64,000 nt of DNA from a virus (taxonomy: Duplodnaviria; Caudoviricetes). Below the pieces are notes generated by a model that did not search any database, was not told the origin of the DNA, and worked only from the letters and a program-made list of their open reading frames with translations. This document shows, piece after piece, positions 14,090 through 60,564 of this stretch. The stretch is taken from the IMG/VR virus record IMGVR_UViG_3300033979_000663, positions 13,749 to 77,748 of that record; one strand, 5' to 3'. Position 1 is the first letter of the stretch. Each line of letters opens with the position of its first letter. The position numbers and the translations under genes were made by a program.

Positions 14090-14243
14090 CCCCGTAATGC
14101 CCCTACAAGCCGCAATCAAGGCTAAAGGTACTTTGGATTTGGTCTATGTTTGCGACAGTAACCAGTTTTACTCCTGGTTTGGGTTTTCACCCCTTGTTTT
14201 TTACAGGTCGGACAAAGCTTATATTTCTTGTCCTTCCAGGTTC

Positions 14244-14543
14244 TTACTTTTTTGGTTCACCTCTACTGCATATCACTTGATGCAGAAACGGGACTAAAGC
14301 AAATGCTGTTTCTTCTGTCAGCGCGTCCAGTACCACAATTAGTTTTACTGCTTCGTCATCCATGCCCTGATTCCACATCGGTTTCTCGAAATAGCAGCTT
14401 GCACAATAGGCGATCGCAAACCCTAGCGTATCTTTACCGACTTTATCGAGTGTGCTACCAAATTCCTGTTCAATCTTTTCTAGGATTTCGTGGTCAGGGT
14501 AGTCTTCGGGAACTGATACGTAATATCCGATTGGTTTAGTCAT
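14244..14543 (-). CDS. Hypothetical protein; candidate -1 frameshift extension to 14122 adds a zinc finger
   Basis: Ends CCA AAA AAG TAA; the -1 frame reads VRTWKDKKYKLCPTCKKQGVKTQTRSKTGYCRKHRPNPKYL*. Confidence 0.65.
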   Translation of the reverse strand: MTKPIGYYVSVPEDYPDHEILEKIEQEFGSTLDKVGKDTLGFAIAYCASCYFEKPMWNQGMDDEAVKLIVVLDALTEETAFALVPFLHQVICSRGEPKK

Positions 14544-20965: not shown

Positions 20966-21373
20966 CTAGATTAATTCTAATTCCACCGTTTCAATTTTAG
21001 ATGGGGATATTTCTACGAGTATCCCCATTATTTTATCTTTATTTCTCTTTTTTTTGACCTTCACAAAACGCCCACTACAGCCCGTCATATTGCTAGAAGA
21101 ATCGTTATCTAATACCTCGGCTTCAACCAAGGCATCTGCTACACTCCCAATTAAATTATCTGCATCACTACTAAAGAAATTAATGAATGTGCAGTTAATA
21201 GTAAATGGACTGGGAACTTTCTCTAGTTTTAATTTTTTGATATGAGCGATCGCTGCATCTTTCCATGCACCATATCTAGGACAAGTATGCCTAACAACAT
21301 GACCAGTTCTTCTATTGACGCTAATCCTTGGTCTACCTTTCCCTACTCCTCGACCTGGAATAAATATTTTCAT
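20966..21373 (-). CDS. rusA: RusA-family Holliday junction resolvase
   Basis: KGRPR...Y.AWK...DADNLIGSVADAL...LDND. Confidence 0.75.
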   Translation of the reverse strand: MKIFIPGRGVGKGRPRISVNRRTGHVVRHTCPRYGAWKDAAIAHIKKLKLEKVPSPFTINCTFINFFSSDADNLIGSVADALVEAEVLDNDSSSNMTGCSGRFVKVKKKRNKDKIMGILVEISPSKIETVELELI

Positions 21374-37626: not shown

Positions 37627-37737
37627 AGATTATTGAATCGAAGAGCAATAATCTTAAATCAAAAGGCAGGATGCGTCCTGAAGAAACTAACATCCTGCCT
37701 CAAGTTCATTACAAATAAACTTAATGGAGATCGTACC

Positions 37738-39510
37738 ATGTCTTTAACAGCAACCCGGTTCAGTCGCGCTTTTTCATCCTCCGAATATTCTGCCGTCCTC
37801 TCTTTAGAGGAAGCCCTCTTTGAAGAGGGCTATGAATGGGACGGACGAGACTTGATCCAGTTGGATGATCAAGGTTCACGTCCCGCGACCGATGGAGATT
37901 TATCTTATCTCCGCGAACTGTTCTGGCACGAAGGTGTCAGAGGACAGGATTTAAAGGAAGCGATCGCGTCTTTGAACTTAACCAAAGGAGGACAAAGAAT
38001 CCTCCATGAAGCAGTCCGCGACTACAACGGGAAACCGTTGACGGATTACGTTGCCAAGTACCACTTCAGGAAGAAGTTGGTGTTATGGCAAGCCAACGAT
38101 GCCAACAACGATGATTTCAGAGTTTCGCAGCCCTTGATAAACTGCGGTTATTGGCATGACGGCACAGAATTTAAGGATGAGGCTGATACTCTTTGGAACT
38201 ATGGTATCCATTGGATAGGGGATGCTGTTAAAGTCTATGAACTAATCCCCCATGTATGGACAAAAGGACGTAGCTTAAATAGCCCATACCAAGTGAACCT
38301 TGACCAGGTCGTCCTAGTGGCGACAAATCCGAACTATCGCAACTTGCCCTTATGGGCAAAGATTCAAGTTATCAGAGGAAACCATGCCTCATCCCGTCCT
38401 GGGGATGTTTGGCGCACTTTAATGCCAGCATTAAAAGCTTGGAAGTGGGACAACTCCATCCCCAAAAGATTCGCTAAACGACTCGGTGAAATGTCTCCCA
38501 AGTATCGTGCTTTGGGCGCGATCGCGTGGTCAATGTGTGATTCCAATAAATCCGATTTCTGGAATAAATTCCAGGAATTAAGCCTTCATCCCACGAAGGC
38601 TATCAGTCCCCTACTGTGGGGAGATTTTTCTGTTTACCAACGAAATAGATCCTTAGAAATTTTGTGGGGATTACCCCACAAACACCTCGATACAAACGAC
38701 GGCATGGTTCAGTTGTCGCATTATTACGACGACTGGCATAAGTACGAAATAATAGCGAAGTACGGCGGCGGTTCTGCTGCCGTATGCCGCACCTTGTTTG
38801 GTTGTGGCGGCAAACAGGTTCAACGCCTGTTCCAATCTTCATCCTTCAACCAGAGGAAATGGGCGATCGCGATCGCTTACGGTAAAGAGGATTTAGTTCA
38901 AAAGTATCTCGCCTCTGATTGTGTCCCCTATCAAGAGGACGCAGTTAATTTTCTCAAGTTCTTGGGCGAAAAGCCCGCACTGAGAATGGCGCAAACAACC
39001 ACAATGACCCTGCGTGGTAAATCGCAGGATGTCACCGGTGATTATATCCGTGACACTGGCTATCTTTTCAACCAGTTACAAAACAGTGGTGTGTCCCCCG
39101 ATTTGGGGCGCGTCCGCTGCTGGTTTAGCACTCACGAACTCCTTGCTAAGGAGTATGTCAAAATCCTTCCCGACTTCGAGCTTCGGGTTAATCCCGACTT
39201 CGCCCCCTTAGATGGGTTGTCTAGCTTAGATATGTCCTGGGAAATCGAGATTCCCAAGCACCAACACCAGTTAAAACGTTACGGTGAGATCCTATCTCAC
39301 TGTGTTGGCGGCTATGGTGCTGCCGTCAACCAAGGAAGTAGCGTAATTGTTGCGGTCTATTTCCAAGGTGTCCTCAAGTATACTCTTGAGTTCGTAAAAG
39401 GCGATCGCGCCTACCGCTGCAATCAGTTTTACGGATTCAGGAACTCTCACCCTAGTGAGAGCGATCGCTCCGTAGTCCTGAATATGTTCCAGCAAGCCAA
39501 GCTCATCTGA
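37738..39510 (+). CDS. PcfJ-domain protein
   Basis: C-terminal LKRYGEILSHCVGGY...G.SVIV...TLE...QFYGFRN.HP; GGAG RBS. Confidence 0.75.
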   Translation: MSLTATRFSRAFSSSEYSAVLSLEEALFEEGYEWDGRDLIQLDDQGSRPATDGDLSYLRELFWHEGVRGQDLKEAIASLNLTKGGQRILHEAVRDYNGKPLTDYVAKYHFRKKLVLWQANDANNDDFRVSQPLINCGYWHDGTEFKDEADTLWNYGIHWIGDAVKVYELIPHVWTKGRSLNSPYQVNLDQVVLVATNPNYRNLPLWAKIQVIRGNHASSRPGDVWRTLMPALKAWKWDNSIPKRFAKRLGEMSPKYRALGAIAWSMCDSNKSDFWNKFQELSLHPTKAISPLLWGDFSVYQRNRSLEILWGLPHKHLDTNDGMVQLSHYYDDWHKYEIIAKYGGGSAAVCRTLFGCGGKQVQRLFQSSSFNQRKWAIAIAYGKEDLVQKYLASDCVPYQEDAVNFLKFLGEKPALRMAQTTTMTLRGKSQDVTGDYIRDTGYLFNQLQNSGVSPDLGRVRCWFSTHELLAKEYVKILPDFELRVNPDFAPLDGLSSLDMSWEIEIPKHQHQLKRYGEILSHCVGGYGAAVNQGSSVIVAVYFQGVLKYTLEFVKGDRAYRCNQFYGFRNSHPSESDRSVVLNMFQQAKLI

Positions 39511-40078: not shown

Positions 40079-40115
40079 TCCGACCTGAGTACGTCGTTAA
40101 ACTGCTTCTGTGTAC
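40079..40115 (+). ncRNA. Small pseudoknot-like motif, copy 1
   Basis: CGAC-CTGAGTAC-GTCG-TTAAAC-TGCTT; identical 37 bp at 40566-40602. Confidence 0.55.
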
Positions 40116-40140
40116 TGGAGAATATTTATCAAAAAACTAA

Positions 40141-40202
40141 TCCGCCTGATGAGTCCGAGTGGTTCTCGGACGAAACACTCTCTTGAGTGTCGCGGGAAAC
40201 CG
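40141..40202 (+). ncRNA. Hammerhead ribozyme, type I (HHR2); predicted cleavage after GUC at 40191
   Basis: TCCGC CTGATGA GTCCGAG TGGTT CTCGGAC GAAA CACTC TCTT GAGTG TC GCGGG, then AAACCG. Confidence 0.93.
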
Positions 40203-40344
40203 CACATCATTCCTCTAAATGATGTTTGCTGATTAGCTTAGGTCTCATCAACCTAAGCTTTCTTCGGGGTGTAGCCGAAAGGGTAAGCAAGTGAGTAAAG
40301 TAATTGAGAAGATTCTAGCTATTGGAGAATAATCAAAAAACTAA

Positions 40345-40406
40345 TCCGCCTGATGAGTCCGAGTGGTTCTCGGACGAAACACTCTCTTGAGTGTCGCGGG
40401 AAACCG
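40345..40406 (+). ncRNA. Hammerhead ribozyme, type I (HHR3); predicted cleavage after GUC at 40395
   Basis: Identical to HHR2. Confidence 0.93.
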
Positions 40407-40468
40407 CACATCATTCCTCTAAATGATGTTTGCTGATTAGCTTAGGTCTCATCAACCTAAGCTTTCTT

Positions 40469-40561
40469 CGGGGTGTAGCCGAATTGGAACAGGCGTAATT
40501 CCCAGTAAACATGAACGATGTGGTGATTCTATCCATGTGGGTTCGAGTCCCGTCACCCCGA
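40469..40561 (+). tRNA. tRNA-like RNA / pseudo-tRNA with non-canonical anticodon arm
   Basis: Acceptor CGGGGTG/CACCCCG; TA; D-arm GCC-GAATTGGAACA-GGC; T-arm GTGGG-TTCGAGT-CCCGT. No assignable anticodon. Confidence 0.65.
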
Positions 40562-40565
40562 CCTG

Positions 40566-40602
40566 TCCGACCTGAGTACGTCGTTAAACTGCTTCTGTGT
40601 AC
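40566..40602 (+). ncRNA. Small pseudoknot-like motif, copy 2
   Basis: Identical to 40079-40115, 4 nt after the tRNA-like element. Confidence 0.55.
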
Positions 40603-41047: not shown

Positions 41048-41245
41048 ATGCCCCTCATAATTTTAAAGATAAAGGATGGTTTCAATCTTAATAACCATCC
41101 TTGCCTGACTAGAAAGGCTGGTATTGGAAATTATCTTTTGATATGCCATATACCCCAGCCACAGATACAAAGCTTAAAAATAGATCCTTGCGTTGAATCG
41201 TTAAGGATTGAGAAATGGCTAAAAACTTATTTTAAAGACAAATGA
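41048..41245 (+). CDS. Hypothetical protein
   Basis: Operonic; ATGA overlap with the next gene. Confidence 0.45.
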   Translation: MPLIILKIKDGFNLNNHPCLTRKAGIGNYLLICHIPQPQIQSLKIDPCVESLRIEKWLKTYFKDK

Positions 41246-41652
41246 ACGACGAATTTCTGAAAAAGGCAATAGATTGGGCTTCTGCGAATAAGCCTGATGC
41301 AAGCATGAGCCACAAAGCAGCTTTCGCCAATTCTGTGGCTTACCTTTGCTCCGGCTGGAGCGGAGGTTATGGTGGACCCTCAATGAGGGAGCATCTTTGC
41401 TCTTGGGCATTAGCTGGAGATGAAGGACTGAATGAAACAGCAAGTCTCAATGGGCTTGCCATAACGATTCAATTCCCTGACAACAGGCTACCCCGCCCTG
41501 GACATTGGAGATTTGAGGAAGCAGTCAAGTTCTGCGAACCTCTCTGCTTTGAACCAGCACAGAAGCATTTGAAAATTTTAGTGCAAATCTCCGAAAGAGA
41601 GCATTGCTTCGACGATGACCCCGAAGATATCAAAGTATTGCGGGGAAAGTAG
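41242..41652 (+). CDS. Hypothetical protein; candidate -1 frameshift extension to 41891 adds a zinc finger
   Basis: Ends CGG GGA AAG TAG; the -1 frame is open for about 80 codons. Confidence 0.7.
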   Translation: MNDEFLKKAIDWASANKPDASMSHKAAFANSVAYLCSGWSGGYGGPSMREHLCSWALAGDEGLNETASLNGLAITIQFPDNRLPRPGHWRFEEAVKFCEPLCFEPAQKHLKILVQISEREHCFDDDPEDIKVLRGK

Positions 41653-41944
41653 TTAAGTTAGTTAATGGCTGTTACTCCCTAGAACCAGCCAGAAAACTAA
41701 CATCAAATCTTCTTGAATATGTGTTGTCGGTGGCGCGTATTCAGGAAGGGGCAAACATCTGTAGAGGACTAAAAAATCCTTACACGGTGTGCTGTAAACA
41801 TCTTGCAGTTCAAAATCGTTCTGGCTACTGCAAGAACCACCGTCACCAGTCACCTTCCCAAAAGGCGGCTGTGAAAAAAGCCAGAAAGTAAACCCGTCCA
41901 TGTTCGATTCGATTATCGGGCATGGGCGATCGCAAACCACTAAT

Positions 41945-42343: not shown

Positions 42344-43384
42344 TTGAAGTGGTTATTTCAGTTACCAATGGGTTTGTTTCCAGTGAGTCAACCCAATCCA
42401 ATAGAGCCTATGCAAGCAAACGGTGAATTCTATCCCGCCATCCTCTTGATTGAGGTTTGGTGGGTAGGTAAAGATCAGCCCGTCATGATGAGGGCTGCTG
42501 GGTTTGTACCTAATGGGTACGGCGATGCTTGGGTTCGCCAATGTAAAACCCAAGAGGAATTTGATAAGTGGCGTTCGCACTCTCTAGCACTTATCAAAAG
42601 GTTCAATGGTCGGGCTCTTGATGTTACTCAATGGCGACCTAGACAACCTGAACCTATCCCAACCCCAGTAGTTGACATGGAATCAATTGCCAACAAAATA
42701 AAGAAACTGTTGGCATTATCCCAGTCACCTAACGAAGCGGAGGCGATCGCTGCTTCACAAAAAGCCCAGGAACTGTTGACCCGCCATAATTTATCAATGG
42801 CGGATTTAGCTGACTCCTCTCAAGAGGATGTTGAAAGGTACGAGCTAGAAACCTTTTCCAAGTTCGTTGGATGGAAAAGTCACTTGGCTGCTGGCGTTGC
42901 TAAATACAACGTCTGCAAGTGTATCCTGTCTGAAATCGAGGGGAAAAGTATTGTATTCATTGGCAGGTCAAGTAATTGTAAAGTTGCTGCACTGCAATAT
43001 GAATACCTTGCTTCTACCATTGACCGATTAGCTAAAGAGCAGGAAGGCGATCGCTCTTACAAGAATGCCTTTCGATTGGGTGCTGCCGACAGGATATCCA
43101 AGAGGCTGGAATACTTGCGGATAGAACAAGAAGAAGATGGGCTTGAGTCAGATGATGGCAATATATCAGCCATTGTCATCACCTCTTTGCACAAAAGACT
43201 TGAGGGTGAGATAGATGCTTTTTACAAATCTTACCTGAAGTCAAATAAAATAACGAGTCGCGCAGTCAGGGGATCGTCATACTCGTCAAGAGGTGGCTAT
43301 GCTGCTGGCGATCGCGCCGGTCAATCAGTAAGTCTCAACAAACAAGTTGGGGCAGGTAATCAGAAACAGTTAGGAGGCAGATAA
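42344..43384 (+). CDS. DUF2786-domain protein
   Basis: KIKKLLALSQSPNEAEAIAASQKAQELLTRHNLS; ...NAFRLG...GYAAG..AG..V.L. Confidence 0.8.
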   Translation: MKWLFQLPMGLFPVSQPNPIEPMQANGEFYPAILLIEVWWVGKDQPVMMRAAGFVPNGYGDAWVRQCKTQEEFDKWRSHSLALIKRFNGRALDVTQWRPRQPEPIPTPVVDMESIANKIKKLLALSQSPNEAEAIAASQKAQELLTRHNLSMADLADSSQEDVERYELETFSKFVGWKSHLAAGVAKYNVCKCILSEIEGKSIVFIGRSSNCKVAALQYEYLASTIDRLAKEQEGDRSYKNAFRLGAADRISKRLEYLRIEQEEDGLESDDGNISAIVITSLHKRLEGEIDAFYKSYLKSNKITSRAVRGSSYSSRGGYAAGDRAGQSVSLNKQVGAGNQKQLGGR

Positions 43385-58540: not shown

Positions 58541-58630
58541 ATAACTATGCCTGCCAGCAATAATAATTTATTAATTCAAGATAGCAAAATAGCGATCACA
58601 CTAGCAATAAATAGGCGATCGCTTAATTAT

Positions 58631-58906
58631 TTATTTTTTCTTCTGATAAGTTTGTCTCTCTGGCGCGTGATTTTTGTGGGCTTCGCAATATGGATAGATT
58701 GCGTCGCTTCTTAAACCAGGATTACACACAAGGCAGTTCATACTAGCTGCTATTTCTTCAGGTGGCCAAACCGGAAAACCTGAGTCTGATATTTTCTGTA
58801 AAAGTTCAACATGATATGCCCTGATGATTCTGTGGCGGTGAGTAGGGATATCTTGTTTAAATAACAAAATATAGTCAGAATTGTTGAAATCTAAACGAAT
58901 ATACAT
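58631..58906 (-). CDS. Small protein with C-terminal CxxC...YCxxH zinc finger
   Basis: CLVCNPGLRSDAIYPYCEAHKNHAP. Confidence 0.6.
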   Translation of the reverse strand: MYIRLDFNNSDYILLFKQDIPTHRHRIIRAYHVELLQKISDSGFPVWPPEEIAASMNCLVCNPGLRSDAIYPYCEAHKNHAPERQTYQKKK

Positions 58907-60061: not shown

Positions 60062-60150
60062 CGATCGCCACAACCAGCCCTCGCTTTCCTTTCCCCTTCA
60101 CCAAATACCAAGCGATCGCACTAGCAATAAATAGGCGATCGCTTAATTAT

Positions 60151-60564
60151 TTATTTTTTCTTCTGATAAGCTTGTCTCTCTGGCGCGTGATTTTTGTGGA
60201 CTTCGCAATATGGATAAATTGCGTCGCTTCTTAAATTAGAATTGCACACAAGGCAGTTCATACTAGCTGCTATTTCACTAGCTATGGGCGTATCCGGATC
60301 AAATGATGTTGTGACAATAGCTATAGGTTTACCCGCTTCTTTAATGGCTTGCCATTTACATCTATTCCTGTAGTGGCTAACTATGGGTGCTGCTAACCAG
60401 TAGGGTATTCTCCCACAGGATATAATTAGTCCCTTTGTTCCATTAATTTCCGGGAATGTCATCTGTAGTAAGTCTAGTCTATCTGCTTTTCCCCTGACTT
60501 GAATAAATATCCAAGTCTCCAAGTCTTTTTCTACGGTGGTAATTTTTGTAGTCATAATCAACAT
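60151..60564 (-). CDS. Divergent Csx3-like domain fused to a zinc finger
   Basis: FPEINGTKGLIISCGRIPYWLAAPIVSHY...KWQA...AIV resembles Csx3 G(V/I)(V/I)(I/L)SGR.P.WL...L.H. Confidence 0.55.
   Translation of the reverse strand: MLIMTTKITTVEKDLETWIFIQVRGKADRLDLLQMTFPEINGTKGLIISCGRIPYWLAAPIVSHYRNRCKWQAIKEAGKPIAIVTTSFDPDTPIASEIAASMNCLVCNSNLRSDAIYPYCEVHKNHAPERQAYQKKK

Follow-up and report, generated by a model that had tools for sequence, protein, structure and literature searches.

A zinc-finger extension probably joined to a conserved cyanophage protein by −1 ribosomal frameshifting at a gene end

The DNA analysed here (the window) is a 64-kb stretch of a 77.7-kb IMG/VR virus record related to the Aphanizomenon phage vB_AphaS-CL131 (CL131). 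The analysis concerns a gene for a protein of 136 amino acids (aa), which ends in CGG GGA AAG TAG, and the open reading frame (ORF) that continues behind it in the −1 frame and encodes a putative zinc finger. The initial annotation had pointed to cyanobacterial prophages; the record, a CL131-related virus contig, is not demonstrably a prophage. The features of the locus are the following.

41242–41652, + strand: zero-frame gene from the ORF list, 136 aa, member of a conserved family; the short isoform
41643–41649, + strand: slippery heptamer G GGA AAG, in phase with the 136-aa gene
41650–41652, + strand: zero-frame stop codon TAG, immediately 3′ of the heptamer
41643–41891, + strand: −1 frame extension, 82 codons from GGG 41643 to AAG, then TAA at 41889–41891
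41649–41726, + strand: linker, extension codons 3–28, with no start codon able to cover it
41760–41840, + strand: CCCH finger core C-x9-C-x12-YCxxH; behind it a basic tail extends to 41888

A TGA at 41616–41618 closes the −1 frame, which is open from 41619 and contains no ATG. Of its 82 extension codons, 80 specify new residues, the C-terminal end reads ...ICRGLKNPYTVCCKHLAVQNRSGYCKNHRHQSPSQKAAVKKARK* and the predicted long isoform has 216 aa. The earliest start-like codons in this frame are GTG 41721, TTG 41724 and GTG 41730, the first of which lies 26 codons into the extension. The −1 ORF overlaps the heptamer and passes the zero-frame stop without a start codon of its own that covers the conserved part. 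The initial annotation had described the gene end with its in-phase heptamer, the closed upstream frame without ATG and some 80 new codons ending at 41891; all of this was confirmed directly in the window sequence, as was the finger.

It is likely, judging from the sequence comparisons given below, that a trans-frame product is made from this locus via a programmed −1 frameshift. In that case a single recoded gene would comprise the 136-aa gene and the finger ORF that follows. Most ribosomes would stop at TAG 41650 and release the 136-aa protein, while a fraction would slip one base back on G GGA AAG (tRNA-Gly from GGA to GGG, tRNA-Lys from AAG to AAA), a step that slow decoding of the adjacent stop codon may aid. 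Shifted ribosomes would continue in the −1 frame and produce a 216-aa protein that reads ...VLRGK-VVKL... across the junction and carries a folded linker, the CCCH zinc finger and the basic tail. Both isoforms are presumably needed. The in-phase arrangement of the heptamer lets both tRNAs re-pair in the −1 frame, here at 41643–41649 and likewise at an A AAA AAG heptamer at 14253–14247, which belongs to a second finger locus of the window described further below. According to passages of PMC5009743, G_GGA_AAG and A_AAA_AAG are both highly shift-prone in Escherichia coli; a passage of PMC3296357 gives G GGA AAG as the site of the phage lambda G/GT frameshift, with a stop codon just downstream, in agreement with the initial annotation, which had named GGGAAAG as the lambda heptamer.

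GGGAAAG occurs only once on the + strand of the window. In order to estimate how often such sites arise by chance, 178 mechanical ORFs of at least 60 aa were scanned across the window. Six of them have an XXXYYYZ that is in phase and no more than three codons away from the stop. A classical bacterial heptamer that abuts the stop and is combined with a −1 extension of at least 40 codons was found only at the two finger sites; a third ORF from the scan, 21054–21245 with TTTTTTG, lies opposite the long ORFs of its region. The heptamers at the finger sites exceed chance. An assembly error is excluded because the heptamer reads identically, without gaps, in contigs from four public sequencing runs, of which two belong to other studies, and because 13 distinct relatives carry it as well.

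Homologues of the 136-aa protein numbered 279 at E ≤ 0.001 and include CL131 gp128 at 85% identity. A search of genome contigs with the single 136-aa protein gave one distant locus (L001). Altogether, 93 related loci were compared (one from genomes, 66 from metagenomes, 25 from viral contigs and CL131), and the gene end is complete in 87 of the 94 loci when the window is counted. A finger follows in the −1 frame in 16 of these 87, in frame in four and in the +1 frame in 23; the remaining 44 have no finger. GGGAAAG stands in phase, at most four codons from the stop, in 15 of the 87 loci (13 distinct sequences), every one of them in the −1 class, and in none of the other 72. The initial annotation had made its proposal depend on slippery sites being enriched upstream of homologous fingers, and this enrichment was found. 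The sixteenth −1 locus (L008) ends in ...AAA AAC TGA instead of GGGAAAG. Down to 46% protein identity the heptamer is invariant in the 15 loci, while adjoining synonymous sites vary; the stop follows it immediately in 12 of the 15, one codon later in two and two codons later in one. Among the 13 distinct heptamer sequences (46–100% identity) the −1 frame is open in all and the C, C, C, H set is intact in 12. At the protein level, details were compiled for the best 120 of the 279 homologues: 31 end in GK, 33 in GK plus one to four residues, three in a fused finger and 53 otherwise, so that 64 of these 120 have GK plus zero to four residues, a count that serves only as a protein-level proxy for prevalence.

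Selection was assessed in seven distinct sequences with the window's type of linker, over the 26 codons that separate the heptamer from the first start-like codon to be conserved. In the −1 frame the ratio of nonsynonymous to synonymous changes (pN/pS) was 0.0–0.64 in 21 of 21 pairs; the other two frames gave pN/pS of about 1 over the same codons and contain stops, and insertions and deletions in the linker region are multiples of three. This pattern indicates that purifying selection acts on these 26 codons, and in no frame other than −1.

The same junction also exists in nature without any shift. In-frame fusions with the finger are found in three homologues, P0097 (...YLKGKVCLVCGK...), P0021 and P0115. 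At the DNA level, L009 and L011 read TTG CGN GGG AAA GTT TGT in frame, which encodes LRGKVCLAC; L013, a −1 locus, reads CGG GGA AAG TCT GTC TAG, and its predicted −1 product LRGK|VCLAC is identical to the L009/L011 junction. Two further in-frame proteins (P0161 and P0167) have the same long linker as the window extension, homologous to its codons 3–28. By reproducing the predicted junction ...LRGK-VCLAC..., the natural fusions support frameshifting.

Could the finger ORF instead be an independent small gene, translated from GTG 41730 (or from GTG 41721 or TTG 41724), with the heptamer there by coincidence? Start-like codons are indeed present, the annotation of CL131 lists gp127 as a separate gene with a TTG start, and finger genes that stand alone behind an ATG exist elsewhere (the finger alone in L102–L107 and L118/L119, linker and finger in L097/L098). 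This is nevertheless unlikely. Purifying selection acts on the 26 codons 5′ of the starts, which have in-frame linkers as homologues, and initiation at GTG 41730 cannot account for that selection because the selected codons lie 5′ of it. GTG 41721 and TTG 41724, which the initial annotation had named as the starts that would speak for a separate gene, are replaced by ATT and CTA in CL131 and have no counterpart in L070 or L072, yet the 26 codons upstream of them are conserved as protein. In the window, TTA stands where the CL131 annotators chose TTG; start-like codons are entirely lacking ahead of the finger in L013 and L025, and at the 14.1-kb locus none precedes the first Cys. The heptamer, moreover, is invariant and perfectly associated with a −1 finger. 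A shift at the level of the RNA (transcriptional slippage on GGGGAAAG) or termination followed by reinitiation at the stop would exploit the G4A3 run in which the heptamer is embedded and the stop that lies directly at the site. The homopolymers known to be prone to transcriptional slippage are far longer than runs of three or four bases, reinitiation would find no start codon at or near the stop, and what is conserved is the exact in-phase X XXY YYZ pattern; events of this kind are very improbable as the source of the product. The in-frame fusions, one base different at the junction, would also be expected if an ancestral fusion had suffered a 1-nucleotide (nt) insertion and the finger were its dying remnant, and L025, with D in place of the finger His, and the finger remnant after gp141 of CL131 could be taken for stages of such decay. 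It is extremely unlikely that this explains the locus: the 13 distinct sequences retain the heptamer, the open −1 frame and, in 12 of 13, the ligand set, with pN/pS below 1 and indels in threes.

Several points weigh against programmed frameshifting or against the role given here to the finger. Because the compared sequences are related to one another, the counts do not represent independent events. GTG 41730 (the V of SVARIQEG) is kept in all ten loci with the window's type of linker, and an additional short product of 53 aa could be made by internal initiation there. The stand-alone ATG genes suggest that a working finger does not require recoding. How readily ribosomes shift on X XXA AAG varies with the tRNA-Lys set of the host. 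No conserved stimulator was found to accompany the heptamer: upstream Shine–Dalgarno-like GGAGG or GAGG occurs in some loci only, and a conserved 3′ stimulatory hairpin was rejected, since RNAalifold on seven relatives gave −2 kcal/mol with no compensatory pairs. Finally, the 136-aa domain matched no Pfam or PHROG family and could be matched to no function, and the extension had no fold match in the PDB (best E 2.2); this absence of fold and family matches likewise counts against the proposal.

Individual loci do have hairpins 5–8 nt downstream of the heptamer. The one predicted in the window is listed with its statistics.

41657–41701, + strand: predicted hairpin starting 7 nt past the heptamer (region z −2.4, −16.5 kcal/mol); not conserved, doubtful

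Besides the site itself, the sole feature common to the heptamer loci is a stop close by on the 3′ side, as in lambda G/GT.

Programmed −1 frameshifting of the kind proposed for the window would resemble lambda G/GT in its identical heptamer, its near zero-frame stop and a minority long product that shares its N-terminus with the short one, as described in passages of PMC3296357 and PMC5009743. The two differ in what surrounds and follows the site. Lambda G/GT adds a tail-tube-binding domain, whereas the window site would add a zinc finger; the window gene does not lie in a tail module and its proteins are unrelated to G or T and have no PHROG match. A tail assembly chaperone is recognized by its place between the genes for the major tail and tape measure proteins and by related proteins; neither was found. 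The neighbours of the gene are PcfJ-like and DUF2786/DUF7168 genes (37633–39510 and 42344–43384, both on the + strand), and a DnaD-domain gene lies near the CL131 locus. L096 likewise has a PcfJ-like gene ahead of its finger locus; such a neighbourhood is typical of plasmids.

Other recoded genes offer partial parallels. The E. coli dnaX gene (tau/gamma), according to a passage of PMC5009743, uses the A AAA AAG heptamer that is present at the second site of the window (14247–14253), but the dnaX shift shortens the protein and the window shift would lengthen it. As in OrfAB of the insertion sequences (IS) IS1 and IS3, the frameshift would join two functional modules; in IS3 a catalytic part is added to an upstream DNA-binding part, whereas here the putative binding finger is what is added. 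Unlike dnaX and the IS elements, the window sites show no conserved pair of Shine–Dalgarno-like sequence and hairpin stimulator. The −1 shift at CGA AAG before the stop of Bacillus subtilis cdd is, in the account given in part of PMC5009743, also an A_AAG shift at a gene end that extends the C-terminus; it is called incidental there, whereas the window extension is conserved, under selection and also found fused in frame.

The finger has four putative metal ligands with fixed spacing, and C, C, C, H is invariant in 19 of 19 aligned finger sequences; the relative L025, with D in place of His, has been mentioned. Against Pfam DUF5763 (PF19067) the extension scored 15.3 and 16.2 bits, below the gathering cut-off of 26.3, and the other three fingers of the window gave no DUF5763 match; matches to zf-primase were obtained with relatives only and lie below the Pfam cut-off. 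A profile built from the 19 fingers retrieved 185 proteins at E ≤ 0.001 among 1.84 billion. The best 150 of the 185 were sorted by architecture with a regular expression: 73 have at least two fingers, 34 a single C-terminal finger, 26 a single N-terminal finger and 12 a single finger elsewhere, and five did not match the expression. The 99 proteins with several fingers or an N-terminal one contain HNH (19), HNH_5 (16), Endonuclease_7 (5), Bac_DnaA_C (3) and HTH_38 (3) domains, and one protein combines a LAGLIDADG_3 domain with a C-terminal finger. The tandem CxxC...GYCxxH fingers of phage-type HNH endonucleases are among the arrays that this window-derived profile finds; the window proteins differ from them in that each has a single, C-terminal finger and lacks a nuclease domain. 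No HNH domain match was obtained for the four finger proteins of the window, such matches being confined to distant finger proteins.

We infer that the finger binds nucleic acid, because it occurs in arrays in HNH, endonuclease VII and LAGLIDADG nucleases and has a basic tail. The chances seem roughly even, on this analogy, that it is a zinc-binding module that anchors the N-terminal domain to DNA or RNA. AlphaFold2 (AF2) modelled the 136-aa protein with a predicted local distance difference test score (pLDDT) of 94. Its fold had no PDB match (Foldseek best E 0.89), matched only its own orthologue in BFVD and gave no usable match in the ESM Atlas. For the 82-aa extension the best AF2 model reached a pLDDT of 91.5, with 93–95 over the first 20 residues, and the others 78–81; the extension is thus predicted to fold confidently from its first residue. 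When the finger profile was run against PDB sequences, ribosomal protein L33 alone was returned (E 0.34), and no solved structure was found.

The initial annotation had noted related fingers at 14.1 kb in the −1 frame and in frame on two unrelated proteins (58631 and 60151). A six-frame motif scan found exactly these three fingers in addition to the one at 41.8 kb, all on the − strand, and the finger profile gave exactly four copies in the 77.7-kb record. Their features are as follows.

14244–14543, − strand: second zero-frame gene, 99 aa, end GAA CCA AAA AAG TAA
14247–14253, − strand: slippery heptamer A AAA AAG, in phase, with TAA directly after; also recovered by the window scan
14122–14253, − strand: −1 extension with finger, reading KKVRTWKDKKYKLCPTC...GYCRKHRPNPKYL*; profile match E 1.7e-8
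58631–58906, − strand: 91-aa ORF, its C-terminal end formed by the in-frame finger; N-terminus matches phrog_23655
60151–60564, − strand: 137-aa ORF with a Csx3-like N-terminal domain (Pfam Cas_csx3 24.1 bits, cut-off 21) and an in-frame C-terminal finger

The four fingers align with invariant C, C, C, H and are homologous, while their N-terminal partners are mutually unrelated (BLASTP E ≥ 2.1), so that alignment and BLASTP agree with what had been noted. The gene at 14244–14543 is proposed, from its sequence, to use A AAA AAG and TAA as the first gene would use its own heptamer and stop. Its −1 frame is closed by TGA at 14259–14257, one codon ahead of the heptamer, and reads KKVRTWKDKKYKLCPTCKK...GYCRKHRPNPKYL*; no ATG, GTG or TTG precedes the first Cys of the finger. 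All four homologues found for this gene end in EPKK, and the conservation of A AAA AAG at the second site rests on these four protein ends, not on DNA: no DNA of homologues was found in viral contigs or in the phage collection. A strong Shine–Dalgarno-like sequence, GAGGTGA (14262–14256, − strand), ends 3 nt before the heptamer, a spacing shorter than that reported to stimulate −1 shifts.

The two in-frame finger cassettes (58620–58760 and 60140–60280, − strand) are about 95% identical in DNA along some 135 nt that take in the stop codon and the 3′ flank, and their upstream sequences are unrelated, which points to a recent transfer of the cassette. Downstream of gp141 in CL131 (104868–104915; L095:560–640) lies the shortened finger remnant already mentioned, which reads YCKNHRHQSP... 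and has a 3′ flank matching window 41889–41935.

The finger in the +1 class (23 loci, 14 distinct; L027–L035 and L073–L089) follows homologues with 37–40% identity to the window protein. It lies 7 or 16 nt past the stop, and ...TTT C... stands just ahead of the stop in 23 of 23 loci. In L033 (L033:1780–1950) and three copies of it the finger frame opens nine codons before the first Cys and has no start codon. Schwartz and Curran reportedly described +1 shifts at UUU-pyrimidine, and the finger of this class may be joined by a +1 shift on UUU_C. Yet another arrangement is seen at L096:1180–1200, where an unrelated upstream ORF ends GAA TGG GAA AAG TAG and the −1 frame reads ATG GGA AAA GTA (MGKVAPEIQ...); a start codon and an A_AAG slip site coincide there, and the sequence would allow either translational coupling through the overlap or slippage on A_AAG.

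The initial annotation had taken the finger for a portable tag attached to four unrelated proteins. The homology of the fingers and the unrelatedness of their partners bear this out; as a tag added only by recoding it does not hold, since the finger also occurs as mini-genes, in HNH arrays and in the +1 frame. We regard it as possible, at somewhat less than even chances, that we are dealing with a mobile mini-domain that moves as a cassette with its 3′ flank and whose connection to its partner is evolvable (−1 shift, apparent +1 shift, fusion or a free gene of 47–77 aa), and that phages of this group employ recoding to set, for several unrelated early proteins simultaneously, fixed ratios of untethered isoforms to isoforms tethered to nucleic acid.

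Upstream of the 136-aa gene, the intergenic region 40079–40602 contains a perfect 152-nt direct repeat (40128–40279 and 40332–40483) and a perfect 37-nt repeat (at 40079 and 40566). A match to the Rfam tRNA family (32.9 bits, cut-off 29) at 40469–40563 on the + strand overlaps the end of the 152-nt repeat; ARAGORN reports this segment in intron mode only, as tRNA-His(GTG) with a 17-nt insert.

A literature search returned no report of programmed ribosomal frameshifting with a zinc finger in a cyanophage, none that brings frameshifting together with HNH and zinc fingers, and none on DUF5763; the main text of the CL131 paper does not mention the gene family, the finger or its modular use. The mechanism would be classical, of the lambda G/GT type, while the gene family, the finger family and their modular use appear to be undescribed in the literature searched.

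The locus offers a well-supported candidate for programmed frameshifting beyond the tail-chaperone and transposase cases, and its site is present in an isolated, culturable cyanophage system (CL131 with Aphanizomenon) in which it is directly testable. The annotation of gp127 and gp128 would be corrected to a single recoded gene, as would many pairs of 'hypothetical' genes in metagenomes. A finger family is defined that Pfam lacks above threshold and that recurs in HNH homing endonucleases, and the phage-borne Csx3 relative that carries it (60151–60564) could act on cyclic oligoadenylate signalling. If the modular reading is true, the −1 shifts, +1 shifts, fusions and separate genes would form a natural series in which to ask why an isoform ratio is selected.

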